DNA from: Leucoraja ocellata
Lineage: Eukaryota
DNA length: 64,000 nucleotides
NCBI GenBank assembly: GCA_036785375.1
Contig: JAWMAR010001270.1
Span: 124,001 to 188,000 of the forward strand
Reading direction: 5' to 3'
Shown: piece after piece, positions 390-63,798 of the stretch
How the letters are laid out: the number at the start of each line of letters is the position of its first letter
How positions within the stretch are numbered: position 1 is the first letter of the stretch
The notes under the pieces: generated by a model
Seen by the model: only the letters and a program-made list of their open reading frames with translations
The model's database searches: none
What the model was told of the DNA's origin: nothing
Translations under genes and position numbers: made by a program

Positions 390-497
390 ATCCAGAAACC
401 ACTGACAAAACACAAATTATTGGATGTGTAGTGGGCGGACTAGTAATTGTGATTCTGATCATATTTTTCACAAGATTCGGATTAAAGGCGCAACCGG
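390..497 (+). CDS. TM exon 1 of an upstream gene B paralog whose L/V/C1 exons lie left of the window
   Basis: Identical to 41600-41707, same splice sites. Confidence 0.8.
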
Positions 498-1704: not shown

Positions 1705-1806
1705 AATGTACCTATAAAATACTGATTCTCACACGTGCAGTGGGCGGGTTGGTAATTTTACTTTCGATTATAATTTTGACCAGATTAGCATGGACGGCAC
1801 AACATG
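1705..1806 (+). CDS. Candidate TM exon 2 of the upstream gene B paralog (ECTYKILILTRAVGGLVILLSIIILTRLAWTAQH)
   Basis: Copy of 42922-43023. Arg codon CGT at 1734-1736, donor G|gtaaga. Confidence 0.55.
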
Positions 1807-5354: not shown

Positions 5355-5582
5355 NNNNNNNNNNNNNNNNNNNNNNNNNNNNNNNNNNNNNNNNNNNNNN
5401 NNNNNNNNNNNNNNNNNNNNNNNNNNNNNNNNNNNNNNNNNNNNNNNNNNNNNNNNNNNNNNNNNNNNNNNNNNNNNNNNNNNNNNNNNNNNNNNNNNNN
5501 NNNNNNNNNNNNNNNNNNNNNNNNNNNNNNNNNNNNNNNNNNNNNNNNNNNNNNNNNNNNNNNNNNNNNNNNNNNNNNNNNN
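5355..5582. other. Assembly gap (N run)
   Basis: N bases. Confidence 1.
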
Positions 5583-11930: not shown

Positions 11931-12029
11931 ATGCAGATAAAAACCTAATTATCGGATGCGCAGTGGGTGTCTTGGCAGTTTTAATTTTGGCCATTATCTT
12001 GATAAGGCTCCAATTAAAGGCACAAAATG
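11931..12029 (+). pseudogene. Orphan TM exon 3 (DADKNLIIGCAVGVLAVLILAIILIRLQLKAQN)
   Basis: Paralog of TM1. The homologous acceptor reads TG and the GAA codon reads TAA. In-frame AGs at 11929-11930 and 11935-11936. Donor G|gtgaga. No V or C1 exon recognised upstream. Confidence 0.65.
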
Positions 12030-13244: not shown

Positions 13245-13373
13245 ACTAAAGATGATAGATTCTACGTTATATCATGTCGATTTGCAGTTACTCAACACCA
13301 ATCAGCAGTAACATTTAACCAGAAAGAGGAACATGTACCTTATGCAGATGGAAATGTTTTAAAGAAGGAGTGA
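13245..13373 (+). pseudogene. Orphan terminal exon with degenerate ITIM/ITSM (TKDDRFYVISC...HVPYADGNVLKKE*)
   Basis: Acceptor region homologous to 30006 and 2756. ISC aligns with LTY, and VPYADG aligns with TVYADV. Confidence 0.6.
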
Positions 13374-15171
13374 AGCTGGGAATCGAAGCTGTAGACTGTG
13401 AATAATTGCAGGCGGAAATATTGCTACTTTCTGATCATTGCAGCCAAGCTAATGAACTCCCATGGTAACAATCGTTGGAGCTGCAGGTCGTTTTCACCTG
13501 CATTGAGTCAATGCTTTGGTGTAAATGACCATCATCTAACAAGCATCCAACACTTTCTGAAAGCAGGGATGAAAGTGCCAGTTTGCATTTGGTGTATTTT
13601 AAAAATCGTGTTTGTTTATTTTACTTCTGTTCTCAAATGTGAATAATTTCGCTGGTGCTTTGTGAAGAAACTATGGCCACGTCCGTTCGTGATAACATGT
13701 CACTTAATGATGTCTGATTTAAAAAAAAATCCGCCGATTATTCAGTTGTGCAACCAATATATTTTCCCTTCATTAAATTCCATGCTTTTTCAATGCACCT
13801 GAGCCTTTGTCCTCTCATTTGTTTCGAAATACACTAACGTCAACACAAACCAGAGAAGGAAATCCGAAGAAACCCATCAACCAATCAAGTGCACTACCAT
13901 TGAATACACTTGTAATGAAATGGTATTAGTCAGTCATGTGATGATAGCCTGGCGGAGCAAAGCGCCTCAGTGAGGTCAGTGGCATAGCCACCTACAGTGG
14001 AACAGAAGATGTAAGTTCTGTCAGGTGCCAGTTCTGCACGGATGGTTCCATTTGCCCAGACATTACTGTTGGTAACTTCATGTGTTCCACGTAAAAAGCA
14101 AAGCAAATCAGTACGTGCATCAGCATGTAGTGACTGGAAGCACCAGCAGACCTTGGCGGACTGAGCACACACACGCGCGCATACACACACACCCTTCCCT
14201 TCTTACATATACAACCGCCGCCTTCTCGACATGACAATTTCACCCATCAACTGCATCCACCTATCACTGGATCGGTTTTGGCCCACCCCAGCTATCTTCC
14301 AGCTTAATCCACACTATTCTGAAGAAGGGTTCTAACCTGACACGTCGTCTGCCCATTCCCTCCACAGATGCTGCATCGCCTGCTGAGTTCCTCCAGCGCT
14401 TTGCTGTTTTTCTCATGATCCCAGCAATGACAGTCTCAAATATCTTAATGTGTAGTAACCGTCCATGCAGCTCCCTGCGGACTGTGTTCTGGATGCTGAA
14501 ACAGTGCGCCCACTTGTCACTGTATTCATCCTGTACGTCCCATTATGAACTCAATCAGATAAATAGATGGAAAACTAATGTCATTTAATCAAATACGATT
14601 GATTCGTCTTGGATGAATTATGATTTTCAACAGATCCTGATAATTAATTACGAAAAAATATATGGTGTCACAAGAGACTGAAGGTGCTGGAATCTTGAAC
14701 TGCAAGAAATCAGCAGGCAGGCAATATCTGTTGAGGGAAATGGAGAGACGACCTTGCGGATTGGATCCCGTCTTCAGACTGACCTTCAGAAATGTATGTC
14801 ACTTGGTCACTTAAATAGGTAGATTTCTGTTTACATTAAATCCATTGTGCTGTATTCAACTAAAGGTGTGAATTAAATCGTCCACACTGGATGGTGATGC
14901 AACTTAATAAATATCAAGACTGTGCACAAATTGCAAACTGTTTATGATTATTTCCACTGATGCACCTATGACATAGTGAAATAATGTGAATGCCAGAGTG
15001 TGCCACAGGCCATATGTATACTCTTGCTCTTGGGATAATGTGGCAATTTATTTGTGTTTGCCTATCCCTTCTCGCTTCTCAAAAGCGCGATTTCCCCTTA
15101 TCTGAAATTATAATCTACTGCTCTTGTGAATAGTTTAATAACATTAACTCTTGTGAATGAGTTTAACTTGT

Positions 15172-22278: not shown

Positions 22279-22333
22279 ATGTCGGTGAAAGTTAGAGTTT
22301 GGTCCATGGCTCTTCTGGTCATACTAACGCAGG
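22279..22333 (+). CDS. Gene A leader (signal peptide) exon, MSVKVRVWSMALLVILTQ
   Basis: ATG plus 18 codons with a hydrophobic core, ending in a phase-1 donor G|gtatag. Same length as the gene B leader. Confidence 0.85.
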
Positions 22334-25300
22334 GTATAGTTAAATTGTGTGCCATTTCTGGTCTAAGTATTATTTTTCGAAAATTCGGACCTGGTTTCGA
22401 GCTATTAGGTTCATCTATTAGGCGCTCGTGGGTTTATAGTTGTTTCGTGCTTTTCGACAGTTGGTTCCTGTTTTCTCTGTCCAGTATTTAAAAAAGTATC
22501 AATTGTTCTTGCTTTTTCCCCGACAGCTACCGAAGTCTATCCGACCAGAGTGTCCCAATTCCCTGCCATCTTGGACGTTGGCGGCGGTGAACATGCTATC
22601 ATGTATTGCACATTTCCAATATCGAAAGACACTATTGGCGTTAATTGGTGGAGGGACGGCATGAAGACATTCCTTGAACCGGACAGTAGAAAACAATTTA
22701 CGATAGATTCTGGAAGGGAAATATTTACTCTCCAACATGTGCGTGTCGCTGACTCCGGCCTGTATTACTGTCAAGTAAAGTTCCAGCATCAGGTTATCGG
22801 GAATGGAAGTGGCAGCCTGATCACCGTATTTGGTGAGTGTGTGTGTTAGGAAAATAAGCAATTTTCAGTTCTATGTCATTTGTAAAGTCTAGTCGCGAGG
22901 ATAATATGAAAAATCTCCTGTTGATAAATATCCGGTAATAACAATTTTAAATTACAGGGACCAGTAATTCAAAATAAAACAAAGCACAATGGACATAACC
23001 AGCAGGTCGAGTCGCACTTGTGGGACGCGTGGGTATTGAGGGTTATTCTGTTCATTGTACGATACTTTGCGAGACTCCTTTTCATTGCCGCTATGAATGG
23101 GCGCAGCCCATTCATTTAGCGGTCCCGAATTTTAAGCCAATCTCCCAGATGGATGTATCGCTAAGAACGGGTAACTGCTGAGATGGAAGGAATTCATTCT
23201 GAGGAGTGGTTAGAAATGTTTTGCGATGATATATTTAAATGATATTCCTGTTAGTTTGAGTGGCTGGAGTGTGATATCCAGGTTTCTCGTCACTAAGAAA
23301 AGAGAGTAGGAGCAATTTTAATACGTCGATGGTAGAGTCTGTCATGCCTCTATTCTACATCGACAGCTTTAGAACCTCATAAGACCAATGTGCTCCTGCA
23401 ACACAAGGACCTTGGTATTCCAACATGTGGGACTCATCGCTGCTGATTCCAAGCTACTTCAATGAAATCTTTTTTCTTTTTTTTGACATCGCTTGATACT
23501 AATTTTGTCAGGCATAACCTCAGTCTATTCAACCAATTTGGCACCGTACGGGGGAAAAAAGAAGTAAACAACATCTCAACTGAAATTATTTAAAGTCCGG
23601 GAATAAACAGTAACATTTATTTCATCATTAAAGATTATCCTGATTAAGTGAATTAAGTCAAGCTTTCTAAAGATTTGTAATAAACGGACAAAGCAACCCA
23701 ACATTCAACTCCCCGTCCAGTTAGACACCGACTGCAGCTCGTACGGAAGGAGTTCGCGTTAATAAATGCCAAATATAGGGCCTTTTACGTGCAGACCTAA
23801 CTGAGTAGAATCTGCACAGCGAGAAACAGAGCTTGTTCTTTTCCCTCGTTTGGCTTCTGCAAGCTATCATCATTAACGCCGATCTAACGTTGTCGATTCA
23901 CTGTCGCCAATTTAGCACAACAGATGGAACTGATTTGTATAGAGACACAAAATGCTGGAGTAACTCAGCGGGACAGGCAGCATCTCTGGGTAGGAGAAAT
24001 GAGTGACGTTTGGGGTCGATACCCTTCTTCAAACCTCGACCAGAAACGTCACCCATTCGTTATCCGAAGAGATGTTGCTGTTCGGTTTAAACCAGCTTTT
24101 GTAGTTCTTTCCTACATACTGACATAGAATAAGTGCGCTCGTAGATTGCTTGTAATAGAAACCACGGTGTTTTAATAAAAGCATTCAATGCGCGAGAAAG
24201 GTAGGTGTTCCAGCACTTGGTTCACATGCAGGTAAATGGTTGTGATCGGCATTTCAAACCCATATCTGGTTCTGGTTCTGGTTGATTACTGCGCAAACAC
24301 CTCATGTGGTTATCTCGCGCAGGTCGGAGTGAGTAGAGTAGAGTAGTGATTAAATGTTGAAGTGGGTGTTTTTGACCAGGGCGAGGAGATTTAGTTCATA
24401 TACTACTTAAAGTGCTAACGGGATTAAACATTAATCTTCATGTATAACCGCTTCCTGTCATCACACTATACAAATCTGTTATATTTCGATTATGATGGCT
24501 CCATTTCTTTTGCAACATATGAATGATCCGAACATGGCCACTTTTAAATAATCACGGCAGGCTTCTGGCAAAAACTTTCGCGCGATACCGGGGAACGTCC
24601 ATTCAGAACAGAGTTTATTTTGGAACTCCTTAAATTCTGTTGGCACTCCTTTAATTCACCCTCTTTGTATCTTGGTGGAGTTCGTCCGTGTGTCCGCTAG
24701 GAAAGGGAGTATAAATGAACGACAAACTGGGAAGTTTAAATATTAAATAATTTGGTCTTGACAAATACGACTCGGTGGCGAGATAAAATGTAAATATTTG
24801 CAATGAAATGGAAAGCGAACACCGATACATTTTTTTTTTTCTTTGCTTAAGATCCCCCAACTCCCTTGACAATTGTTCCTGCTGAAGGACTTGGATCTCC
24901 ACGGAAACTTGTGTGCAAAACTGGCGCCTTTTATCCGGAGAAATTAGAAATATTCTGGCTAAGAAATAACGAGGAAATTCGCACTGGAATCGAAACTGTG
25001 AAAAAACCGAGCGAAGAAGGATTGTTTGTGGCTACTAGTTCTTTGGAAATAACGCAGCCTGGGGAGGGCAAAGATATTTACACCTGTCTGGTATCACATG
25101 TCTCCCTGAAGGTGGCGGCCAGTTTCAGTTACACCCTGGGCCAAGGTAAGACTGGAGCCAGTTACACATGATATTGGGGCGGTAGATCAAATTCGATCAG
25201 ATTAATAACTGGACAGCTTTCCGTACACGGAGCGAAGGGTAAATGTGGCTCGCATTTATTCGCATGAAAGCAACACTTGCATGCTGTTTAAAATGAATTG

Positions 25301-28300
25301 CACTCCATCAGTTCTTGTAAGGAAATCCGTGTGAGATGAATTGACAAACTGAATTGATATAATGATTGTAATGAGCAAAAACGTCCTGGGATATGCATAT
25401 CTACTGTCTGGTGAAATATATGAATATAAAGCCTAAATTCCGTTTAACGTCAGTAAGCAGCTTTCCACACATGGGCACAATACAACGGCAATTGTTTGTC
25501 CTGTGGATTCCATTACTAACTTCCATCTGGTGCCTCATGATATACCTTCCAAACTTTCCGATGTGGGTATTAAAATGCACCTACGAAATGATTTGCCTTG
25601 TTGACTTCCGTTTGTATATTTGTTCTGAAATGTATAAATTCTTTACAGTTTCTTAATTTTCAGTTGCTTCATCAGGAATTGATCGCAAACAGATGATCGT
25701 ATATGCAGTAGGTGGATCAGTAATTTTAATTCTGATTATAATCGTGATAAGACTCAGCTTAAAGATATGGCACGGTAAGAATCTTGATAATAATCATACA
25801 ATAATCATTTCTATGGTTAAAACGAGAATGGATATGTCAATGGTGTTTGCTCACAGAGGAGAAAAGGAAACGTAGATGGACATGTAAAGAAATTTCTGAA
25901 GCCGGTTTTGATATATGTGTGTGATAATATGATGGATCTTCAAATTCAATTATTTCAGCTTGGAATTTGATGTATTCAATTATCACCTATGCATATATTT
26001 TCAAATATAAGGAATTTTTCAAATCCAGTGTGATTGACAATTAATGCAATGGAAGATTACGATTTTGAGGAAAAAATAACTGTGGCTTTCTGTGGCAATG
26101 AGCAAAACCAAACATCTCCTTATGTTTACATTACATTGCTGTTTCGACATGGACACGGTTCCTCATAAACCATTACAATTTTAAAGTTTCAGTTAAAATT
26201 TAGGTCCAGTGGGCGCAACATCGCGAAAGAGTACAAGATGCGTTGTATTGTTATAATTGTGACAATTGGTGCTGCTGAGCACCATCGGATATTTAAAAAT
26301 GCAATCGTTCTTATTTTCTGCAGTAAATTTGATTAAAATGAGAAGAATAATGTCAAAATCTACAGATCAATCTTTACAATTCAAGTTGTTTTTATGTAAC
26401 TCTTATTTCATTCCTCTAGGCCATAACGTAACCTCTGTAGGAATACGTCCGAACGGGGAGCCGGTAGGTGAAATGTCTCCTCTTGTTTCAAAATAGGGAT
26501 TATTCGTAGCAGAAATATTAATCAGTTTTATTCTATAGTATCGTGGAATACTCTAGGGCAGGATGAAACCATTATTTATTTTTCAGGTTACGTCAAGTAT
26601 ACATCCACTAATAATTTGAAAATTCCTGTTGTATCTGCTTCAACATCTTTTGACAATTCCATGCCAGATCATATCCTAATTTATTCTAAAGTGAAAGGTG
26701 ATGTTTAGGATGAAAATATGAGCCTTTATTAGTTCTGGTGGCAGGAATACTTAAAAATATACGGTACGGTAATTAAAATGAAAATGAAAAGAACCTTTGT
26801 CGAGAATTTAATTTGCTTTCTTGAGCCGTTCTTTAACGTGTTAATTGCAGTTTTGGCTTCGATCCTTAACGAAGGGCCATTTAACCGGATATCGTGGATA
26901 GGGGAGAACCAGTGGATGTGGTGTATCTGGACTTCCAGAAGGCTTTCGACAAGGTCCCACATAAGAGATTAGTATACAAACTTAAAGTACGCGGCATTGG
27001 GGGTTCAGTATTGATGTGGATAGAGAACTGGCTGGCAAACAGAAAGCAAAGAGTAGGAGTAAACGGGTCCTTTTCACAATGGCGGGCAGTGACTAGTGGG
27101 GTACCGCAAGGCTCAGTGCTGGGACCCCAGCTATTTACAATATATATTAATGATCTGGATGAGGGAATTGAAGGCAATATCTCCAAGTTTGCGGATGACA
27201 CTAAGCTGGAGGGCAGTGTTAGCTGTGAGGAGGTAGCTAGGAGACTGCAAGGTGACTTGGATAGGCTGGGTAAGTGGGCAAATGTTTTGCAGATGCAGTA
27301 TAATGTGGATAAATGTGAGGTTATCCGTTTTGGTGGCAAAAACAGGAAAGCAGACTATTATCTAAATGGTGGCCGACTAGGAAAAGGGGAGATGCAGCGA
27401 GACCTGGGTGTCATGGTACACCAGTTATTGAAAGTAGGCATGCAGGTGCAGCAGGCAGTGAAGAAAGCGAATGGTATGTTAGCTTTCATAGCAAAAGGAT
27501 TTGAGTATAGGAGCAGGGAGGTTCTACTGCAGTTGTACAGGGTCTTGGTGAGACCACACCTGGAGTATTGCGTACAGTTTTGGACTCCAAATCTGAGGAA
27601 GGACATTATTGCCATAGAGGGAGTGCAGAGAATGTTCACCAGACTGTCAGGACTGTCTTATGAAGAAAGACTGGATAGACTTGGTTTATGCTCTCTAGAA
27701 TTTAGGAGATTGAGAGGGGATCTTATAGAAACTTACAAAATTATTAAGGGGTTGGACAGGCTAGATGCAGGAAGATTGCTCCCGATGTTGGGGAAGTCCA
27801 GGACAAGGGGTCACAGCTTTAAAACCGAGATGAGAAGAACTTTTTTTCACACAGAGAGTGGTGAATCTCTGGAACTCTCTGCCGCAGAGGGTAGCCGAGG
27901 CCAGTTCATTGGCTATATTTAAGAGGGAGTTAGATGTGGCCCTTGTGGCTAAGGGGATCAGAGGGTATGGAGAGAAGGCAGGCACGGGATACTGAGTTGG
28001 ATGATCAGCCATGATCATATTGAATGGCGGTGCAGGCTCGAAGGGCCGAATGGCCTACTCCTGCACCTAATTTCTATGTTTCTATGTTTCTATGTTTCTA
28101 TATGGCCTACACGGCATCGAAACTGCTTCTCACAAAATTACTATTTTGTGCTGGCTGCTAAATGGAATCCCACAAATGCATCTTCCACTCTGCAATACTT
28201 AGAAGAAGAAATCTCCAAAATCTGCAAAAGACTGATATTCGTATTGGCACTGGTTAATTATTGTCATGTACACCGAGATTCAATTATAAACTTTATTTTG

Positions 28301-30140
28301 CGTGCAATCCGGAAAATGGATACCATGTATGGGTACAATCATACCATACCCAAGTGCAAAAAGGGAAATGACACAGGATGCAAAATATTGTGTTACAGCT
28401 AAAGAGAAATTCCACATTTTAAAAGCGCAAGGACCAGAACGCGGTAAATCACAGATCAGGATTGCACCATTAACTTGCTTGACGCCTGTTTAGTAACTTG
28501 ATAACATCGAGTATAAAGCCGTTTTTAAATCTTACACAAGGCGATTTCAAGCTATTCGTATTCTGTCCGCCGAGGGAAGAGGAGAGAATGACGGAAGCTT
28601 GTTTACGTGGTTGGCTGGGCTGCAATCACAGGTTCCTGCGTTTCTTAAGGTCCTGGGCAAAGCTGTCGCTAAACCAATTTGGGATTCATCCCCATATAAT
28701 TATTTCGACAGTGCAGCTGTGGAATTTGGGAAGAGACTTTGGAGACCGTCCAACTTTCCTTGGTCCTCTGGGAAGGTCGAGGCAATGGTGTGCTTTCATG
28801 GTGTTAGAATTAATGTGGTTGGACCAGTGCAAATTATTGGTGATGTTTATCGCCAGGAAACTCGACCAACACCATTATCCACCCCTTTCCTTGAAATGAC
28901 ATAGTTGGTAATATCATTGAAAGCAAGTGAAATGTTAATCTATTCCTCTATATCCCGCGTGCATCGATTTTCAGCCCCAGTTACAGTTCTAGTGCCATAT
29001 CAGCTATATAAGCCTGGTCACCCGCAGTATTAAATGTACTTTTCTAATAGGTGAGACAAGCACCAATTGAACATACCGCTGCCTATGCTACACTGAATTT
29101 AAGCGAGAGCAAAGGATTTTCAAATGGTCTACAAGAAGAACAACATGTCGCCTATTCACAGGTAATGCTCTTGGACAGCGTAATTTAGATATGGAATGAG
29201 CATTGTTCCAAATGTAGTTGCTTTTTCCAAACTGCAGGGAAAATATAAGTGCACAATGGCAAATCTTCATTTAAGTAAAACCTATCACCCGCTGCTCATC
29301 AGAGCATAAATATAATTTTCCTTTCCTTATTCGGGTTTAAATTCAAATGTAAATTGTATGTGAAGAAATAAAGGGTGGGAAGCTAGGAACACACAAACCT
29401 ACCCAGTTCTATAATCAGGGCGAAATTAAATACAAATGCAAGTCAATGGCCTGGGAAAAGAGAGTAAACAAGCCGTTCAAATTATCCACCGAATAGGGGA
29501 CTCGTGTCAAAAACTGGGGACGCAGAGCCATAGGAAGTAGTACCAACTTATATTCTATTGCATTTCGGTGCCACTGATGAAGCCGTGAGCCGCGGTGTCT
29601 ATTGGAGAGGTACCGGTAGCTTCAGTCTGCGAACCACCTCTTGGGCTCGACAGGCAAAATGGATTCCCGCCAATCCCACAAATACACTTTAAAAGGGGCT
29701 TCGAATTATGCCAAATATTTAATACTGCGGATACAATTTTGAGCAATCACCAATTCTCCTAACTTTCGTAATTACATCGAAGTTGACATAAACGAAAAAG
29801 AAAATAATTCTTTTGTGGGACAAGAACAGCTCCTCGCGTTTAAACTCAATATCAAGCAGAAAGGTATAGCCAAAAATAAATCTGCAAATCAATACCATTG
29901 TAAAAATAACAACTGATGGGTTGCATAAAATATTATTTTAAAGCAGTATGCTCAAATTCGCCACTGAATGATTGCCTAATCACCGATCATTAATTACTTT
30001 CGCAGACTAAAAGAGGTGGACATGACAAGCTGACCTACGCAACTGTGCAACATGACAACCCCAAGAAAACGTCAGTATCCAAACAGAACAAATACACGGT
30101 GTACGCAGATGTGAATACTTCAAAAAAGACGTGTAACTGA
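22279..30140 (+). CDS. Gene A: inhibitory-type IgSF receptor, L-V(J)-C1-TM-cyt with ITIM+ITSM, 314 aa. join(22279..22333,22527..22832,24852..25145,25664..25774,26420..26463,30006..30140)
   Basis: Six exons with canonical AG/GT ends and intron phases 1,1,1,1,0. Total 945 nt, open to a TGA at 30138-30140. Domain motifs are listed in the exon entries. Confidence 0.85.
22527..22832 (+). CDS. Gene A V-type Ig exon with germline J-like G strand
   Basis: Acceptor cccgacag|, donor G|gtgagt. Motifs VSQFP...IMYC...VNWWR...FTLQHVRVADSGLYYC...IGNGSGSLITVF. Confidence 0.93.
24852..25145 (+). CDS. Gene A C1-set Ig exon
   Basis: Poly-T tract and taag| acceptor, donor G|gtaaga. C1 hallmarks LVCKTGAFYP, W, and YTCLVSHVSL. 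Confidence 0.93.
25664..25774 (+). CDS. Gene A transmembrane exon (VASSGIDRKQMIVYAVGGSVILILIIIVIRLSLKIWH)
   Basis: ttttcag| acceptor, G|gtaaga donor, uncharged hydrophobic stretch. Homologous to the other TM exons. Confidence 0.88.
26420..26463 (+). CDS. Gene A short cytoplasmic linker exon (GHNVTSVGIRPNGEP)
   Basis: tttcattcctctag| acceptor and CCG|gtaggt donor. Its 44 nt convert phase 1 to phase 0, exactly what is needed to read the terminal exon in the ITIM frame. Confidence 0.7.
26890..28102 (+). mobile_element. CR1 LINE RT fragment in the last intron of gene A
   Basis: 342-aa ORF with YLDFQKAFDKVPH, GVPQGSVLGP and FADD; (tttctatg)n tail. Confidence 0.96.
30006..30140 (+). CDS. Gene A terminal exon with ITIM (LTYATV, 30030-30047) and ITSM (TVYADV, 30096-30113)
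   Basis: ctaat branch-like motif and tactttcgcag| acceptor. Translates to TKRGGHDKLTYATVQHDNPKKTSVSKQNKYTVYADVNTSKKTCN*. Not in the ORF track because it has no ATG. Confidence 0.87.
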   Translation, partial: TKRGGHDKLTYATVQHDNPKKTSVSKQNKYTVYADVNTSKKTCN

Positions 30141-36270: not shown

Positions 36271-37576
36271 CTTTCGTTTGCACACACGTTTGATCATCTT
36301 ATGTTCCTTCACACGTCACCTTTTTTGATTCACGTTTTGTTATTCATCTTACCATAATAACTATTCTTTGTGTGTTGAAAATGTGAACCTGAAATAACTG
36401 AAAGGAAATACATTTACAAAGATGATTCTTGAACAATTATAACTTTTAAAAAGCTACGTCGCACATTGCATTGACCGGGAACAAACTCCATTGACTATAC
36501 ACCTTGCTCATGCTGCTCTTTTAAAATTTGGCATCACAAGTTGTCAAGTGCTCAAATCTCCAAGAATGCAACAATTTTAAGTTAGCAGTCATACTGTAAA
36601 GAATTCTATTTTTTGTCTCTGAAGTCTTTTGTGGTCTTGGACGTATTTCTCCTTTTCTTTGATAATCGATTCTATGTCTAACAATTCAAGCTTTTACTTT
36701 AATAAACTCGCATCGTCTTTTGTTTGCTGATGTGGTCCCCTTCTCTTCAGTAATCGGGTTTTGTAATGCACATTTGGCCCTTGAATACCTTTGCGCGAAA
36801 GTTGCTGTTGCAAATATCTGCGAATGTAACAGATTAATACTTGGGAGCAAGGAGCTAGTTAATTCCTGAATTTTAACAATGGAAAGAGATTATAACATTT
36901 TTGCTTATAGTCACATATGGCACCACGGAGAAAGGTAGCAGAGGAATGCACTATATATTGTAAGCGAAAAAGAATGCAATCAAAGATTCAGTTGACTATG
37001 GGTTTCCCTTTCTAAATTCCTTGTGTGAAGAATTAGACGATCCGAATCAATAGCGAAAAACTCTTAATGGTACGCCGCCCAATTGCCATCTAGTGGACGA
37101 TCAAATCCTTATCAACAACATCACTTGATGTAATGCATCTCATTTAAATGCTGCAATTGAGGCTTGGAGTTTTTGGCTGAAATGAAAGAAATTCGCAGCG
37201 GGACTAACTCAAAGGTCATCACACCCTCCTGCATTCAAGGTGGGATAATCTGTGACAGAAATATACGAGGCTGAATAGTTGACAGCACTGTCATCTTATG
37301 CTCCGGTAGGACAAAGTCTCAATTTGAGAATGAGGTAGAGGTAAATGGATTTCAATATGTGTTGTCCAAACGCGGTGCACCTACAATGGCTGGGAGAGAA
37401 ATCATTTTGGAGTAGGAAATCGAAGAAAACATATTTCCTAGATCATACTCGCTGAAACATAAATATACTCAAAATGCATCACGATGCCTTAGTCATGTGA
37501 TTTACGGCGTTGGTGTCACACGCTTCAGGCATTCTATGAAAACCTATTTCTTATGCACACCCTTCTATTTTGCAGT

Positions 37577-37631
37577 ATGCCGGTGAAAGCAATGGTTCGG
37601 TACATGGGTCTTCTTGCTTTGCTTTGTCAAG
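37577..37631 (+). CDS. Gene B leader exon, MPVKAMVRYMGLLALLCQ
   Basis: 55 nt like the gene A leader, shares MxVK...LL...Q, donor G|gtatgc. Confidence 0.85.
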
Positions 37632-40600
37632 GTATGCTTAGTTTCTGTACCGATTTCGCTAAGCAAATCATATTTGACAATATTTTACACTAGTATGCCA
37701 CAGTAAATTAAATTTACAACGTTTCTACAATTGGCTAACCATTATTTCCTAATTGTTTTGTATTTGTGTATCCATTGGCTCTTTTTCTTGGTGCTGTATG
37801 TACAAATGTTTTCATCATATTTACTTATTTCTGCCACTGACAAAAGCAACTTCGAGCAAAGTGGAACAATTCCCCGCAATCCTGAAGGTCCCCAGGGGCA
37901 GAAATGAGACCATGTTCTGCAAATTTCCAATATTAAGAGAAACCGCTGACGTTTCATGGTGGAGAGAGGGCGAGAAGACATTTATAGAATCGGACAACAG
38001 AAAACAATTCAAAGTAGGCAAGGGAAGGAGCACATTTACTTTATTGAATGTGAGTGTCGATGACTTCGGGATGTATTACTGTCGAGTGAAACATCAACTG
38101 CAACTTATCGGCAATGGAACTGGCTCCCAGCTAATTGTGTTAAGTAAGTGTCTTTGTTACGAGTAGTGGGGTATGTTCTTCTGTTGCAATGTTACTAAAG
38201 CTTCCTGGTTGTGGAAATATTAATCTTAACTAGCTCTATAATTTTAATAGTTACTTCCGAGATGGAAATCTGAAATAAAGGGAAAATACTGAAAAATATT
38301 CCACCCGTCGGTCAATATACGTTCAGCGAGAGTTCTGTTATAGTTTTGTTTTATTTACTCCGGGTTATGTTAAAAAGTCATAGTGACGTTACCCTGGTTA
38401 TTGCTCTTGTAAATTGGCAGGTCACTTTATATTTTGACCTCCAGCTTTTCAAATACCCAACCAAATTCACGTTACTCCGAATTTCCAGAAAGTTGCAAAT
38501 TTCCCACGCCGACAAACTTTCACATCAACTAAAAACGGAGGAGAAATTGATCTCACAGTTTTGAGGTGGATAATTTTGTTTTCACATTCACTGTCTCCAG
38601 GAAAGTTCATGGAATGAAAAAAGAAAAAACAGAACTACAACTGAAATTCTCCGATATTATTTCTTTGCTTGGTAATTAATTATATGGCACAGGGAGTAAA
38701 ATGTACTATATCTTTATTAATTAATAATTATAGTACAATGAGATGTTATTACACAAATGAAGGAAAATAAATATGCTTAAACAGAAACGAGGTGATTACG
38801 CAATTAATTGCCAAAAAAAGGTACAATTAACTCTCCCGCTCGCTAAATATTACTGACAGTGGCTCCAGCACAAATGGAACCATGGTCGTTAATGTCTTGT
38901 TAATAAAATATATGAAATGAGAAACAGAGTTTGCTCCGTTCATCCTTGCGTGCTTTTCGAGAAAAGCAGTTGTCGCCGATGTACTTCTGCCATTCAGTGC
39001 AGTCCATTTTCTGTAACTACCATATGCACATAAGAAAGAGAAAATGTTCAGAAGAAATGCGTGATTTTGAATTCAACATAAAGCACTGTCACGGAATCTT
39101 ACCAAGCAATGGTCACATTCCTTCATAATAATCGCGCTAGGCAGCACTCCATTCATGCTTTGTTTCAATTACACTACTTACCTTGATATCCTCCGTAAAA
39201 TAATGTATAACAAAATTATAAACTCAAGAAACAACCACACGGATAACAGGAGGCAGCAGCAACGGTTCAGCGACAATTGTGTTCATTGAAATAAAATATA
39301 TTTTGCAGCTTCACGCTTTTTTTTTATTGTTCCAGCTCCCCCAACTCCATTGAAAATCGTTGCTATTGAAGGAAGTGCACCGCATTTGCCGCAACTCGTG
39401 TGTAAAACGGCTGCGTTTTATCCAATGGAATTAGACGTAATCTGGCAAAGAAACAACGTGGAAATTTTGACCGGCATTGAAACCGTGAGAAACAGAACAG
39501 CGGATGGACTTTATGAGGCTTCCAGTTTTTTGCACGACACGCAGCCTGCGCCAGGCAAAACTGTTTACACCTGCCTGGTATCCCACGTATCTCTTACAGC
39601 CCCTGCCAGTTTCAGCTACATTGTCGAGCAAGGTAAGCCGGGAGGCATTTAACGCAGACCCCAGCCTGCCGAGAAATACAATCCGAACAAGTCAAGTCAA
39701 GTCACATTTATTTATCTAGCACATTTAAAAAAACAACTCTCGTTTGCCAAAGTGCTTTACATTTGTTATAAGAATAGTATAAACAAGCAAACTACATAAT
39801 AGATACATATAGCCCGCGCTCAGTGGACGTCAGGAAAGACTTGGGAGTATAGATAAGTTTTATGTCTTGACTTAAAGGAGTCGATGGAGGGGCAGTTCTG
39901 ATGGGAAGGGGGTAGTTGTTCCACAGTCTAGGAGCTGCAACCGCAAAGGCGCGGTTGCCCCTAAACTTATGCCTAGACCGCGAGATATTCAGCAACCCCA
40001 AGTCGGCCGATCAGAGGGACCTGGAGGCGGAGTGGTGGGTGAGAAGACTTTTAATGTAGGAGGGGGCAAGCCCATTGAGGGCTTTGTAGACATAGAAGAG
40101 GGTCTTGAAATGTATACGGAATCGCACAGGGAGCCAATGGAGAGAGGCCAGGATCGGGGTGATGTGGTCCCTTTTTCGGCTGCTCGTCAGGAGTCTCGCT
40201 GCGGCGTTTTGGACCAGTTGCAGGCGGGACAGGGAAGATTGGCTGATCAGTGTAAAGGGAGTTGCAGTAATCTAGGCGGGAGGAGATAAATGTGTGGATG
40301 ATCTATTCGAGGTCATCAAAGTGGAAGAATTGTTTTATTTTAGCTATCGTCCGAAGCTGAAAGAAGCTAGCTTTTACCACGGCATTGACATGTTTGTCAA
40401 ATTTCAGTGCTGAGTCAAATATCACGCCGAGGTTTTTGACTGAGGTTTGAGTAGTTTGGTAAGGCTTCCAAGGCTGCCTGCTATCATTTTGATTGTCGGA
40501 GGGGCCGAGAAGGATTACCTCAGACTTACTCTCATTTAGTTGGAGGAAGTTCTGGGCCACCCAGCACTTTATATCCTCGAGGTTGCGGGTGAGGTTAAGC

Positions 40601-43600
40601 AGATTTGATTGTTTTTTGGGCTTCAGGGGGAGATAGAGTGTGTATCGTCTGCGAACAAGGGTCTAGATCCGATTCCTTTACCCCAGAGATGTTGCCTGTC
40701 CCGCTGAGTTACTCCAGCTTTTTTTGTGTCTATTTTCTAATACAATTAGATAGTTGTGCAAACACAAAAATCCAGTTCCTTTTCATATTTACTGGAACCT
40801 GTGGCGGCGGGTCCAGGGTGTCAGACCCAGAATATAAAATGCATTCTGACTTTGTAAACTGTTGTCAAAGTACCGGGCGTAGTTTTGTAAAATAAAAATT
40901 AACCCACATCTTAACATAATAACCAAACCTCAGCAAAGAGCCGCCGTATAATGTGATCTGTTCTATAAATTCGTCATTACAGTACAATGCGTGCCATGTG
41001 GCAGTCATAAAATCTTTGTGCAGAAATTATTGAAGCAGCGGTGAATTTCGTGGGCGAAGCTTGGCGCTTCGTTGTGCTTATGGCTGGCAGAACAGGGAAA
41101 TTCAGCCGATAGTATGAAATAAATGAACTTTGTACCTTCATTTATTGATCAGGGGTATTTTGAACTTGGGGCCAAAGTACTGCGTTGTAAACATAAATAA
41201 AATCCTTTTATCTTAATAAGCAAACCTCTTTACAATCTGCCGCAGTGTGTGTGATTTGTTCGTTCGGTACATTCCAATATTACCTTACAATTCATGGGCA
41301 ATGGAGGACCCGGCGTGGGGAGACCGCCGTGAGGCAGGGGGGAGGGAGGAGAACAACTGGGGACCTGGAGCGGGGGTACTTTGTATGCGCCCTTTATGGG
41401 CGACTATTTGCGTACCCTGGGTAGGCAAGCAAAGAATTTCACTGTGACGTGTCACATGTGACGACGAAGTATTGAATCTGGTATTTATTGCATATTTTAT
41501 GCAGGGAGGGTGGATAGATACCTTAAAATGCACTGCTTTTTTGTCTCCCTATTCCTGAATATGTGTTCCTATGGTTCACAGTTTCTTATGTTTCGCCAGA
41601 TCCAGAAACCACTGACAAAACACAAATTATTGGATGTGTAGTGGGCGGACTAGTAATTGTGATTCTGATCATATTTTTCACAAGATTCGGATTAAAGGCG
41701 CAACCGGGTAAGAACGTTGCATATTTGACCAAGTACTGCAATGTATCGGTTCTGTTCATTGATCAGAGACAGGATACATTCTATTGCAGCGCGAAACACG
41801 ATTTCAATGTTATTTACTGCTTGAAAATTGATAATAGCCGTCTATCTTTCAAGAGAGAACTAGATAGGGCTCTTCAAGAGAGAGCTAGATAGGGCTCTTC
41901 AAGAGAGAGCTAGATAGGGCTCTTAAAGATAGCGGAGTTAGGGGATATGGGGAGAAGGCAGGCACCGGGGTACTGATTGTGGATGATCAGCCATGATCAC
42001 ATTGAATGGCGGTGCTGGCTCGAAGGGCCGAATGGCCTACTCCTGCACCTATTGTCTATTGTCTATTTTCTATTGTCAGTCAAACACTGAATCTGAATAG
42101 AAAATTATTTCATCTGCCCCACACCTCCCTGGCATCACATATAACCCTTAAAGGTTCCTTCCAGTTTCAACTATTTGGTCAAACAAGGAAATGCAGGAAG
42201 CATTTTAAACGAGTTCTACGTCAGATTAGAAATACAGCTGCGTAGTTGTTCAAACACGAGAGATAGAAGTGTGAATTGTATTATTTGTGATGAAAGACCA
42301 ACGTGCAAGCAGCTCAAAAACTAATACCTCATTCAATGCATCCCGACTGAGATGAATTAACAACCTGAATTTATGTGCGGCTTATTTCATGGTAAACAAT
42401 CGTGAGTATATAGGACTGCGCGGCCAGATTCGGCTCAATATCCATCTACAAATTTGTAGACGACACCACGGTTGTGGGCCGGATCGCAGACAGTGGCATG
42501 TGCGTGTGTCCCTAGTTCTCGAATTCACTCTTAACCCCCTCTTTTACATCACCCATTGCTAAAATACGTCGTTACATCTTCACGGTATCTGCACGTATGT
42601 CCTATTATGTGGATCGATGACAAATTATACTGTTCAATGCTTCTGTTTTTTTTTTAAACTGATGTCTATTGCCTAGTGTAACAATATGAAAAAATAAATC
42701 TCTTCTTAACCTTAATCAATTATCCCCTACAGAAAGAGCTACTTTGTAAAGTGACGCGTTTGCTTGATAATTAAAACATTAACCCATAAGTGTTGCAATA
42801 TGTATTTCCTACATTATTTTTTGGTGGGTTGGAGCGTTACTTTTCAATGCTCTGCCTTATTAGCTTTTACTCCCTGTATAATTAATATGTCTTACGGTTT
42901 CTTATTTTTCACCTAATCCAGAAAGTACCTATAAAAGACTGATTCTCACACGTGCAGTGGGCGGGTTGGTAATTTTACTTTCGATTATAATTTTGACCAG
43001 ATTAGCATGGACGGCACAACATGGTAAGAACCTTGGATTGTTCAGTTATTTCAATTGTATTTCTAGAAAAGAGAAAATATGCGTTTTTATTCGGAATTAA
43101 ACAGAACATCCATAGTACCTTGGAGTGTTCAGTTATTTCAATTGTATTCCTAGAAAAGAGAAAATATGCGTTTTTATTCGGAATTAAAGAGAACGTCCAT
43201 AGTATTTACATATTTTACAGTTGGCTATACCAGTGTAACTGCGCCTTAAAATGCAATGATTTCAACTTTCCATTCGATGTATTCACTCCTCCCCTGAACC
43301 AATGCTTTTTGAACACCTGTGTTTATTCACCGAAATGTATCCCTCGTGAAAAACGAGAGGAAACTGAGTGTCCGCGAGCAAAGTAACCAATTTCAATCTG
43401 TCCAAATGGCCATGCCGGCTAATTGCAACAACCTGTGATCCGACTGACAAATGGAAGTGTATCACTAAATTCAGAATGGGAATTTACACCATGGCCTTGA
43501 CAGATGAAACTGGTTGCCAGCGATCAAACACAAATACATCAAAACGGCTCTGTGCAATATTAGTACTTCACATGGATAGTATCCTATGTGTTTAAGAATT

Positions 43601-44168
43601 TAACGAATCTCTTAATCTGGTCTACAATGTCGCCTGTTTGACGTTTGTTCCTTCTCCTTATGACCCCGTGGATTTATTCCGGGTGTTCCTGCTTTCTAGC
43701 ACATCTCAAAGATGTGTGGAATGGCGGGATAATTATCCCCTGTTAAATGCTCATCTGGTAGAGGACTTCTAAAGTTTGGGGGCGCAGGGGAGGTTAATGA
43801 CAATATGAAGAGAATAAAGTAGAATTTGGGTTAATGGGAGTTTGACGGTCGGCGCAGACTTGGATCCGCGTAACTACGACATAGTTCTGTGGACCAAGAT
43901 CGGCTCATGTAAAAATCGAGAAAAATATTGATATAAAATCCATATAACCTTTCTGCAAACTAAAATGTATAATTGTTGAGTACCTTAGAATGTTATTGGA
44001 AATAAAAACGATTGTTTTTACGATGGACTAATGGCCGATATGGAATTACTTCCACAGACTAAAGGAGGGGGAGCCAACAAGCTGTTCCGCATCTTCCCAA
44101 CTAATAACAAATCAACAACTAAGCAAAACGGCAAACACGCAAAGGTTTCAAAGAAAGCGAGAAGTTGA
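37577..44168 (+). CDS. Gene B: paralogous L-V(J)-C1-TM receptor with alternative TM exons and no intact tyrosine motif; 3' structure uncertain
   Basis: Exons 37577..37631, 37847..38143, 39336..39632, then TM1 41600..41707 and/or TM2 42922..43023, then a terminal-exon homolog from 44058. The ectodomain is fully open. Confidence 0.72.
37847..38143 (+). CDS. Gene B V-type exon with J-like end (IGNGTGSQLIVL)
   Basis: VEQFP...TMFC...VSWWRE...FTLLNVSVDDFGMYYC. Acceptor is aag| (weaker), donor A|gtaagt. Confidence 0.9.
39336..39632 (+). CDS. Gene B C1-set exon
   Basis: ttgttccag| acceptor, LVCKTAAFYP...W...YTCLVSHVSL, donor G|gtaagc. Confidence 0.93.
39688..40655 (-). mobile_element. L2-clade LINE fragment in the gene B C1-TM intron
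   Basis: Minus-strand FADDT, MAQNFLQLNESKSE...LGVIFDS and RAFAVAAPRLWN; (caagt)n tail. Confidence 0.88.
41600..41707 (+). CDS. Gene B TM exon 1 (DPETTDKTQIIGCVVGGLVIVILIIFFTRFGLKAQP), uncharged, GxxxG
   Basis: tttcgccag| acceptor, G|gtaaga donor, phase 1-1. Confidence 0.85.
42922..43023 (+). CDS. Gene B candidate TM exon 2 (ESTYKRLILTRAVGGLVILLSIIILTRLAWTAQH) with Arg in the hydrophobic segment
   Basis: Nucleotide paralog of TM1. The acceptor homologous to TM1's reads TA, but an in-frame ccag| lies 6 nt downstream. Donor G|gtaaga is intact. Could be a pseudo-exon. Confidence 0.55.
43030..43204 (+). repeat. ~88-bp tandem duplication just after the TM2 donor, specific to copy 2
   Basis: accttgga.tgttcagttatttc...tccatagt occurs twice here and once at ~1813-1899. 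Confidence 0.9.
44058..44168 (+). CDS. Gene B terminal-exon homolog lacking tyrosines (phase 0: TKGGGANKLFRIF...KARS*; phase 1: D*)
   Basis: Acceptor region and first 27 nt are homologous to the gene A terminal exon. Alignment breaks at the ITIM position. Confidence 0.55.
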   Translation, partial: TKGGGANKLFRIFPTNNKSTTKQNGKHAKVSKKARS

Positions 44169-46693
44169 GAAACAAAATACACTTCGTTTCTGTGGACTAT
44201 AAGGAATTACGGGTTTGAAGTATTGTTCCTTTGTATCTACTGCATGCAGTCAAAACAACGATGGAGGTCACAGATACAGGAGAGGATAGTGAAACGTTCG
44301 TTTTCACATTATGCATTATGATAAACTGCAGAAATTGTCGCTGAATATGTCAATTTACCGAGTGTTCAATGTCGAAAGCGATAGCAGTTTAAAGCGGATA
44401 GCAAAACTAAACACCTGCGCTAGTTTATTTAGGATGCTTTCATACAACCTTACAGATGGCGAGACTTCACGAACATTTCGCAACTCATTTCAAACCAAAT
44501 GCCAATTAATTACATTTTAAAATGAAATAACGTTCCATTCATTAAATCACTTGCTTTTGCAAATCAAGCCATGGTTTATAGTTCATCAGCTGTTATGAAA
44601 TGCGACGGCGTGGAGACAAACTACAGAAGGAACTTTGTCGCTGAACCGACAGAAGGCACATTGGAAGTCATAGCATTCAATACAGACGTTGGGAGGCCAT
44701 GGTACAGTAGCATAAGAAACACAGAAACATAGAAACATAGAAAATATGTGCAGGAGGAGGTCATTCGGCCCTTCAGGCCAGCACCGCCATTCATTGCGAT
44801 CATGGCTGATCGTCCCCAATCAATAACCCGTGCCTGCCTTCTCCCCACATCCCTTGATTCCACTAGTCACTGGCCACCATCTAACTCTCTCTTAAATCCA
44901 TCCAGTGATTTGGCCTCCACTGCCCCCTGTGGTAGGGAATTCCACAAATTCACAACTCTCTGAGTGAAACAGTGTTTTCTCACCTCAGTCTTAAATGGCC
45001 TCCCCTTTAAAACTGTGCCCCCTGGTTCTGGACTCGCCCAACACTGGGAACATTTTTCCTGCATCTAGCTCGACCAGTCCTTTTATAATTTTATATGTTT
45101 CTATAATACCTCCCTCTCACCCTTCTAATCTCCAGTGAATACCTCTTTTCAATCTTTCCTCATATGACAATCCGACCATCCCCGGGATCATCCTCGTGAA
45201 CCTACGCTGCACTGCCTCAATCACAAGGATGTCCTTCCTCAAATTAGCAGACCAAAACTGTACACAATACTCCAGATGTGGTCTTTCCAGAGCCCTATAC
45301 AACTGCAGAAGAACCTCTCTACTCCTATACTGAAATCCTCTTGTTATGGAGCTATAGCAGGGTGACCAAATCTTCCTATCGTTCTGTATTATTTTTAATA
45401 AGCGAGGCATTTAATAATACCGAGGTCCTGGGTCATTCGGGGATAAACATTCTCGCCAGCTGAGCTACTGTGTGTGTATGGACCTGCGTATTCATTTCAA
45501 TGAGATTTATAAATAAACTATACTAAGTGGGATCCGTTGGGTCCCTGTCACACAAGAGGCTTGGTTCCCCAACGCAATATTGCATCACTCACCCATAGCC
45601 CCCAACTGCACGGGCGCAGCTCATTTCCCCTCATCCCTAGCACTCTCGCCCCTCCCCTTCACCCTCCCTCTTCATTCCCATCTACTCATCCCCTCCACCA
45701 ACCCCTCCCCCTTCACCTCTCTCTCCCTCTCCTTTCCCCTACCCTCAGTCACTCCCTCCCTCCCTCCCTCCCTCCATAACTCCTCTCACTTCCCTAATCC
45801 CCTCCTCTCCCTCTATTTCCCCTCCTCCCCTACTCTCCCTCCTCACTTCTTCCCTTTCCTCCTACCGTCCCCCAAATCTTCCCTCGCCTCTCCCTTCCCC
45901 TACCATCAGTCACCCTCTCCCTCCCTCCATAACTCCCCCCCCCCCCCCCTCACCCACTCTCCCTCAACAGGTTCTCGAGGTTGCAGCTCCTCTCCCTTCT
46001 TATGAGCCCTGGAGGAGCATCAGCCGTCGGCGCCCTCAGAGCCAGGCCTCGGATCGGCCCGGAAGCACCAGCAGCTGTGCCTTTGTGCCAGCGTGTGGGG
46101 GGGGGGGGGGGGGGGGAGAGATCAGAGAAAAGACGGGGGAAGAGTCATGGGGGAGAGGGGGTATCACGGGGAAGGGGGCAGGGTCCAGCGAGGGACACGA
46201 GAGGGGAAGGGGCAGGAGCTGGGCGGCGTTGGGATGGTGGTATGTTTGGGACTCACAGTGGTCGCTGGACTTTCTCCTCCGCCGAGATCAGATTCACCAC
46301 TTTCCATTTGGCGACGTCTGCCATGCAGCGCCGCTTCCGGTCCCTCCGAAAATGGTGTCCGGTTGGAGACCTCCGTCGGCCACCCACGGCGTCCCTCAGC
46401 TCCAGTAAAGACGCGATGGCGCAGGAAGGGGTGGACCGTCCTGATGAGTGACAGGAAAAGAGACTATTTCCGCGCGGCGCTGACTGGCAGGAGAGGAGAT
46501 CGATCTGCGCCTGCGCAGTTTTAAATATTTTTATATCTCGCTAACGTTTACAATAGGACAATAGCACAGGACAACGGTGAGTAAGAAAAATCATAGCACT
46601 GTCCCGTACCACTTTTGCGCAAATAGAAAAACTAGGCAAACCACAAGAGCACAAGATCAGAGCTTTAGTTATGTACAGATAGAAGATGAATAG

Positions 46694-46967
46694 NNNNNNN
46701 NNNNNNNNNNNNNNNNNNNNNNNNNNNNNNNNNNNNNNNNNNNNNNNNNNNNNNNNNNNNNNNNNNNNNNNNNNNNNNNNNNNNNNNNNNNNNNNNNNNN
46801 NNNNNNNNNNNNNNNNNNNNNNNNNNNNNNNNNNNNNNNNNNNNNNNNNNNNNNNNNNNNNNNNNNNNNNNNNNNNNNNNNNNNNNNNNNNNNNNNNNNN
46901 NNNNNNNNNNNNNNNNNNNNNNNNNNNNNNNNNNNNNNNNNNNNNNNNNNNNNNNNNNNNNNNNNNN
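46694..46967. other. Assembly gap (N run)
   Basis: N bases. Confidence 1.
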
Positions 46968-49972: not shown

Positions 49973-50100
49973 NNNNNNNNNNNNNNNNNNNNNNNNNNNN
50001 NNNNNNNNNNNNNNNNNNNNNNNNNNNNNNNNNNNNNNNNNNNNNNNNNNNNNNNNNNNNNNNNNNNNNNNNNNNNNNNNNNNNNNNNNNNNNNNNNNNN
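49973..50100. other. Assembly gap (N run) at the AAT microsatellite position
   Basis: N bases. Confidence 1.
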
Positions 50101-53133: not shown

Positions 53134-53232
53134 ATGCAGATAAAAACCTAATTATCGGATGCGCAGTGGGTGTCTTGGCAGTTTTAATTTTGGCCATTAT
53201 CTTGATAAGGCTCCAATTAAAGGCACAAAATG
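53134..53232 (+). pseudogene. Orphan TM exon 3, duplicate copy
   Basis: Copy of 11931-12029. Confidence 0.65.
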
Positions 53233-54442: not shown

Positions 54443-54592
54443 ACTAAAGATGATAGATTCTACGTTATATCATGTCGATTTGCAGTTACTCAACTCCAAT
54501 CAGCAGTAACATTTAACCAGAAAGAGGAACATGTACCTTATGCAGATGGAAATGTTTTAAAGAAGGAGCGAAGCTGGGAATCGAAGCTGTAG
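54443..54592 (+). pseudogene. Orphan terminal exon, duplicate copy (reads 7 codons further)
   Basis: Copy of 13245-13373 with CGA in place of TGA; corresponds to ORF track 54410..54592. Confidence 0.6.
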
Positions 54593-63492: not shown

Positions 63493-63798
63493 CTACCGAA
63501 GTCTATCCGACCAGAGTGTCCCAATTCCCTGTCAACTTGGACCTTGGCGGCGGTGAACACGCTATCATGTATTGCAAATTTCCAATATTGAAAGGCAATA
63601 TTGGCGTTAATTGGTGGAGGGACGGCATGAAGACATTCCTTGAACCGGACAGTAGAAAACAATTTATCATAGATTCTGGAAGCGGAACATTTACTCTCCG
63701 ACATGTGCGTGTAGCCGACTCCGGCCTGTATTACTGTCAAGTAAAGTTCCAGCAGCAGGTTATCGGAAATGGAAGTGGCAGCCGAATCACCGTATTTG
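63493..63798 (+). CDS. Gene A' V exon (gene continues beyond the window)
   Basis: Same splice sites as the gene A V exon, open frame, 14 amino-acid differences from A. Confidence 0.92.

Follow-up and report, generated by a model that had tools for sequence, protein, structure and literature searches.

The SIRP proteins are paired receptors with a V-C1-C1 ectodomain, of which SIRP-alpha is inhibitory, SIRP-beta is coupled to an adaptor and SIRP-gamma is short-tailed. NKp46, LILRA and PIR-A are Fc-gamma-associated receptors. The partners of Fc-gamma carry an Arg N-terminally within the transmembrane (TM) segment, at position 3 in FcalphaRI (PMC1440944). Exon 17 of Dscam1 is represented by two mutually exclusive TM exons, one of which is used per transcript, and the pair has been conserved among the fly, the mosquito and the bee (PMC1397879). 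The passages cited here on the horse CEACAM1 paralogs describe loss of the ITIM, altered splicing of the TM exon and replacement of a disrupted TM acceptor by a nearby one; there is one TM exon per gene, and cDNA showed that the putative activating TM exon was skipped (PMC5856374). For KIR, the passages cited here describe no more than cryptic exons and the skipping of a TM exon (PMC6288254). UrIg and UrIg2 are non-rearranging VJ-C1 genes of elasmobranchs, and UrIg2 has nine C1 domains (PMC10751288, PMC12227049). In a literature that included few subscription journals, none of the 15 papers listed out of 1,341 matches was on point, by title or beginning of abstract, concerning alternative TM exons that switch activation, and no paper on the shark and ray receptor family considered below was found in the same literature.

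The window, that is, the whole stretch of 64,000 nt that was analysed, carries a cluster of receptor genes of leader-V-C1-TM organization (Table 1). The named proteins closest to the C1 exon of gene B are ray and shark sequences (56–67% identity), which makes a ray or skate the most likely source of the window. Many relatives are annotated as PTPNS1-like, and others as NCR3LG1-like, tapasin-like or light-chain-like; among PDB matches, 9dmx (UrIg/UrIg2) was at the top and SIRP-alpha (2wng) was also present. The genes of the cluster look like SIRP-like V-C1 receptors of a cartilaginous fish. Gene A is intact and has four Tyr motifs of the ITIM/ITSM type.

Table 1. Positions of the receptor genes, TM exons and associated gene fragments in the window
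Feature	Positions	Strand	Remarks
Gene A, intact paralog	22279..30140	+	351 aa, encoded by leader, V, C1, TM and three tail exons
Gene B leader exon, coding part	37577..37631	+	ATG at 37577, donor gtatgc; frame agrees with V and C1
Gene B V-type Ig exon, J-like end	37847..38143	+	Pfam Ig families
Gene B C1-set exon	39336..39632	+	Pfam C1-set, E 5.6e-9
TM1, TM exon of gene B itself	41600..41707	+	108 nt, ccag/gtaaga; helix core uncharged
Interspersed repeat between TM1 and C1 remnant	41898..42071		82% alike to an inverted copy at 44723-44896
Dead 3′ remnant of a C1 exon	42121..42189	+	Aligns with 39567-39650 at 73% over 85 nt
TM2, orphan TM exon with Arg	42922..43023	+	102 nt, ccag/gtaaga; acceptor moved 6 nt
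T2, degenerate terminal exon	44058..44168	+	Homologous to last exon of gene A; both Tyr motifs gone
TM3, second orphan TM exon	53134..53232	+	Phase 1-1, Cys, core without Arg; donor gtgaga
T3, degenerate terminal exon	54443..54592	+	Homologous to last exon of gene A
TM1 copy	390..497	+	0/108 differences
TM2 copy	1705..1806	+	2/102 differences, each altering a stalk residue; Arg retained
TM3 copy	11931..12029	+	0 differences

Positions 1-23034 are repeated at 41211-64000 with 96–99% identity, as a 41-kb duplication. Each copy of this repeat contains a gap of N (5355-5582 and 46694-46967), the two gaps being homologous in place, and the copies may represent haplotypes that were set in tandem. 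The V exon of gene A is present at 22529-22831 and at 63495-63797, and these copies differ in 18 of 101 codons, 14 of them with a change of residue. This divergence exceeds the roughly 3% of the flanking block, and diversifying selection on the ligand-binding V domain of gene A is possible.

The V exon of gene B matches the Pfam V-set with an E value of 1.4e-4, which falls under the curated cut-off of that family. An unnamed protein with 99% identity, P0001, is an unspliced read-through of the C1 exon and has no TM segment. The products of gene B considered here were obtained by joining exons in silico. Splicing of TM1 to T2 would give a protein of 253 aa, TM2 to T2 one of 251 aa, TM1 and TM2 together to T2 one of 287 aa, and TM3 to T3 one of 250 aa; joined to a TM exon, both T2 and T3 read Asp-stop, so each of the four products ends in this way. 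The tails are short throughout and no form contains a cytoplasmic ITIM, in the case of the TM1 and TM2 forms because both terminate in the Asp-stop at 44058. This absence from every predicted form makes it likely that gene B is a short-tailed partner of gene A; several of its closest relatives in rays are also short-tailed (P0046 and P0004). With 105 proteins of the family as queries, no other V exon, intact C1 exon or middle tail exon was found within 39633-63486.

It had originally been predicted that TM1 and TM2 are paralogous in-frame exons of phase 1-1, and that a TGT codon (Cys) in TM1 is replaced by CGT (Arg) in TM2. The coordinates, the translations and a match of 71% over 153 nt (E 8e-17) agree with this; the resemblance is not due to chance, and the two codons are found at 41635-41637 and 42951-42953. 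The further description, of two tandem exons set apart by a Cys-to-Arg change, was correct as to the change itself but not as to the number of exons or the extent of their differences. Three tandem paralogous TM exons of equal phase are situated behind gene B, TM3 being the third, and over the last 96 nt of TM1 and TM2 there are 32 differences, with many residues affected beyond the Cys/Arg site. Comparison of four TM exons gave six pairs, each alike at 56–64 of 96 nt; TM2 therefore stands no nearer to TM1 than do the other paralogs. The best matches of TM1 are the ray proteins P0007 and P0046, which are also the best for the V exon of gene B. TM3 matches the TM segments of the intact ray genes P0005 and P0050, and is 73% identical to that of P0005, an intact sawfish protein.

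The ancestral acceptor of TM2 is mutated, as had been noted: CCTA is found at the position homologous to the TM1 acceptor, and 6 nt downstream of it there is an AG in frame. The replacement looks comparable to the acceptor of TM1, with 15 pyrimidines out of 19, a 56-nt zone free of AG and a branch-like motif. TM2 contains neither indels nor stops, and the adjoining C1 remnant and T2 do contain indels. Faster rotting of TM2 than of TM1 was tested for and was not seen: at sites common to other paralogs, the divergence of TM2 was 22–27% and that of TM1 21–24%, and the profile scores were nearly equal (54.8 and 54.0, respectively). Both the usable-looking splice sites and a divergence no higher than that of TM1 weigh against plain decay.

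TM1 and TM2 are open, with intact donors, in the other copy of the duplication as well, as had been reported. The copies are 98.6% identical across the TM1/TM2 block, however, and are therefore not independent evidence. In simulations with two random substitutions, the open frame, the AG and the GT of a TM2-like exon all survived in 85% of trials; with 10 substitutions they did so in 46%. Since openness is to be expected so often after so few changes, the survival of TM2 in both copies shows nothing, and the proposition that it reflects selection was rejected. Immediately behind the TM2 donor there is an 87-nt tandem duplication (43030-43204) that is missing in the other copy. When the T3 copies (13245-13402 and 54443-54592) are read in the frame of gene A, only one has a stop, as is expected of untranslated sequence.

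The surroundings of TM2 and TM3, where a C1 fragment and two terminal exons had escaped the original description, bear on their origin. Between TM1 and TM2, 734 nt upstream of the latter, lies the remnant of a C1 exon, the similarity of which extends into the intron; its alignment score was 54, compared with a maximum of 30 in 200 shuffles. The remnant has a Cys codon changed from TGC to TCC, one extra base and a donor changed from GT to GA. It matches the C1 exon of gene B at 49 of 68 positions, and the C1 exon of gene A matches that of gene B at 49 of 68 as well. T2 is situated approximately 1.0 kb past TM2 and T3 approximately 1.2 kb past TM3, and both have conserved acceptors and degenerate bodies. 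TM2 and TM3 thus have terminal exons of their own, and TM1 has none. An orphan TM exon with its own dead C1 and its own terminal exon would have the anatomy of a broken paralog. The inverted copies of the interspersed repeat flank the C1 remnant, TM2 and T2, and could loop all three out of a longer transcript.

The explanation to which we give a probability of roughly 60% is that TM2 and TM3 come from two neighbouring receptor genes that lost their ectodomain exons and left their 3′ halves stranded. A tandem cluster of V-C1-TM genes would have lost the DNA from just past TM1 into the C1 exon of the next gene, by deletion or unequal crossover, and the tail of gene B itself would have been removed in the process. 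What would be left behind is the 3′ end of the next gene's C1, TM2 and the terminal exon T2. Gene B would then splice C1 to TM1 and borrow T2, giving the 253-aa form, a receptor with a short tail that would not signal, next to the inhibitory gene A. TM2, having kept usable-looking splice sites, may be included at some rate, most simply alongside TM1, and its Arg may date from a time when its paralog was an activating receptor, or may be due to drift. The layout of the debris is, we infer, that expected if two paralogs lost their front halves by deletion; an internal duplication of old date, comprising the C1 end and the TM exon, would look alike. The caveat of the original prediction, that decay is plausible, thereby becomes its better part, TM2 being surrounded by the anatomy of a broken paralog. 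If the stranding of TM2 and TM3 is the correct explanation, as is likely, the locus is an ordinary case of birth and death among clustered immune receptor genes, in which the breakpoint can be read unusually well.

The significance of the Arg was considered against the TM segments of the wider family, which includes inhibitory, short-tailed and Arg/Asp-His members across sharks and rays. Helix prediction with insertion-energy parameters placed the Arg at position 3–6 in the five best helix windows, that is, in the outer part of the TM as had been proposed; the insertion scores of TM2 and TM1 were close (−3.1 and −3.3). Ninety-nine proteins were examined, of which 76 had a TM by the threshold of the analysis and 23 were dropped, including P0105, which carries an Arg together with ITIM-like motifs. 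A separate TM class of seven shark relatives (P0012, P0020, P0028, P0029, P0101, P0166 and P0193) has, in every member, an Arg one column before that of TM2, and Asp-His at the inner end. Tyr motifs are absent from four of the seven, the other three have one pattern match in the tail, and the class is likely to represent the family's dedicated adaptor-coupled activators. No TM exon of this type was found in the window, and TM2 is outside the class by the lack of the Asp-His end. In the column of TM2's own class (69 TMs, one of which, P0142, is misfiled), Cys is found in 45 and Arg in two. An Arg near the TM2 site is found in nine of the 69, and ITIM-like motifs are absent from eight of these nine compared with 26 of the other 60 (p 0.013). 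The p value becomes 0.043 when P0105 is added and 0.076 when two near-orthologs are merged, and many of the tails counted are truncated predictions; because the proteins are predicted and related, this enrichment is only a hint.

The best match of TM2 is P0051 of an electric ray, by the narrow margin of a score of 64 to 63 for the next; the two have a stalk motif in common, but P0051 has Cys and ITIMs, which suggests that the Arg of TM2 is likely to be a derived change. The closest look-alikes of TM2 in rays (P0051, P0043 and P0049) all have Cys. In a weak search of proteins with the TM2 frame, none of 21 candidates scored, and thus no ortholog of TM2 was found. TM2 has a charge bias of −2, with basic residues outside, the lowest among 68 family TMs being −1; an inverted bias of this kind would fit either decay or a second passage through the membrane. 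Other irregular members of the family were observed. The unnamed protein P0125 has its TM and tail repeated in tandem, and would be either another partial duplication or a merged gene model. P0018 and P0019 of a devil ray have an ectodomain near one subgroup and a TM near another, with an Arg one column before the Cys site, and are possible chimeras.

It is against this background that the remaining explanations must be weighed. The original prediction envisaged mutually exclusive use of TM1 and TM2, with a neutral and an activating outcome. It is unlikely, in our estimation, that gene B has co-opted the stranded exons in such a manner that TM1, TM2 and TM3 are alternatives for the splicing machinery. 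It is doubtful to the same degree that the TM2 form pairs with an adaptor of the FcR-gamma or CD3-zeta type and activates, with the TM1 and TM3 forms neutral. The intact-looking splice sites of TM2 are in its favour, as are the short tail of all gene B forms, the Arg of all seven dedicated class members one column away, the occurrence of nearby Args mainly where ITIM-like motifs are absent and a predicted helix position near that in FcalphaRI (position 3; PMC1440944). The TM2 form would accordingly have features of an Fc-gamma- or CD3-zeta-associated receptor, namely a predicted N-terminal TM Arg and a short tail without an ITIM, and an activating TM2 form is structurally possible. However, the enrichment weakens as described above, an Arg in the exact column is rare, TM2 has an inverted charge bias and no Asp-His end, and when a polyleucine helix was given an Arg at position 3, its binding to Fc-gamma came to only 11% of that of the wild type (PMC1440944). 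No device for mutual exclusion was found among short introns, frame or NMD effects, U12 sites and competing RNA pairings, although a weak or protein-based one may be present. The intron between TM1 and TM2 is 1214 nt long, the exons (108 and 102 nt) both keep the frame, and the sites are GT-AG; the 36 pairs from a scan for inverted repeats, made without a shuffle control, included none that was convincing (the longest were of 33 nt, with 73% pairing, and 24 nt, with 75%). The exclusive choice was therefore not borne out, given this result and the dead C1 and terminal exon that TM2 has of its own. What stands of the neutral and activating forms is that both lack an ITIM, and that an Arg near the site recurs in relatives lacking one. 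The complete scheme, in which three receptor genes were fused by deletions and splicing picks either a neutral anchor (TM1 or TM3) or an Arg anchor that recruits an ITAM adaptor (TM2), is improbable. If it were true, a paired receptor system would have been folded into one gene and made from gene debris. Were TM2 spliced to C1, exon choice would decide the signalling of a single ligand-binding domain, and the locus would exhibit gene fusion as the origin of such arrays.

Joint inclusion of TM1 and TM2 is in frame, as had been stated, and if TM2 is recognised at all it would be the simplest outcome. We consider it unlikely, nonetheless, that the two are normally included together to give the 287-aa protein, in which the cytosolic loop would be short and basic and the C-terminus would lie outside, and just as unlikely that the Arg faces the inner leaflet, which is not the FcR-gamma site. 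TM2 follows TM1, precedes the nearest terminal exon and has splice sites of good appearance, all of which would favour such a protein, and the basic residues on the N-side of TM2 and the loss of the C-side Lys fit a pass from inside to outside; but decay predicts the same charge change, one Arg of the loop is Ile in the other copy, and among the C-terminal regions inspected no relative has two adjacent TMs, P0125 repeating a TM plus tail. Finally, tandem genes might have been collapsed or mis-joined in the assembly, which would then lack the ectodomain exons that go with TM2 or TM3, and the duplication might represent haplotypes. The N gaps that separate TM2 from TM3 (46694-46967 and 49973-50100), the corresponding gap of the other copy and the close likeness of the copies are consistent with this. 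However, the stretch from TM1 through the remnant to TM2 is free of gaps in both copies, and assembly would not create the three inactivating lesions of the remnant; an artefact is plausible only for TM3, and as an account of the locus it is very unlikely.

Transcript data do not alter these assessments. Reads from four of 12 raw RNA runs (approximately 5,990 million letters) were placed on 37500-44700, where they were almost confined to repeats, and the depth was zero over the leader, V, C1, TM1, TM2 and T2. The organism code of these runs differs from that of the sequencing runs containing this sequence, and the V and C1 exons of gene B are equally blank, so the zero depth says nothing on TM2. 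A search of sequencing runs identified no RNA run containing the sequence, and three matching runs of unrecorded kind, from one study.

Comparison with the known systems places the locus among them only in part. It resembles UrIg and UrIg2 in having VJ and C1 domains in cartilaginous fish, and differs from them in its single C1 and in being a multigene cluster. Dscam1 exon 17 is similar in outline only, in that tandem paralogous TM exons follow one ectodomain, whereas the extra TM exons of gene B each come with the debris of a whole gene. The horse CEACAM1 paralogs likewise exhibit tinkering with a TM exon after duplication, of a single exon there and of three here, and the exon skipping observed in that case warns against inferring function from genomic exons. 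The Fc-gamma-associated receptors are separate genes in which the TM is wired to its own ectodomain, whereas TM2 is an orphan exon. The adaptor residue here would be an outer Arg, in contrast to the central Lys of SIRP, and each gene has one C1 exon, so that the V-C1-C1 ectodomain of SIRP is not found. The likeness to SIRP consists in a V domain with a J-like end and a C1, and in a cluster where gene A bears ITIM/ITSM motifs and gene B is short-tailed. The cluster would thus appear to work like a paired cluster of the SIRP type, the likeness being one of architecture.
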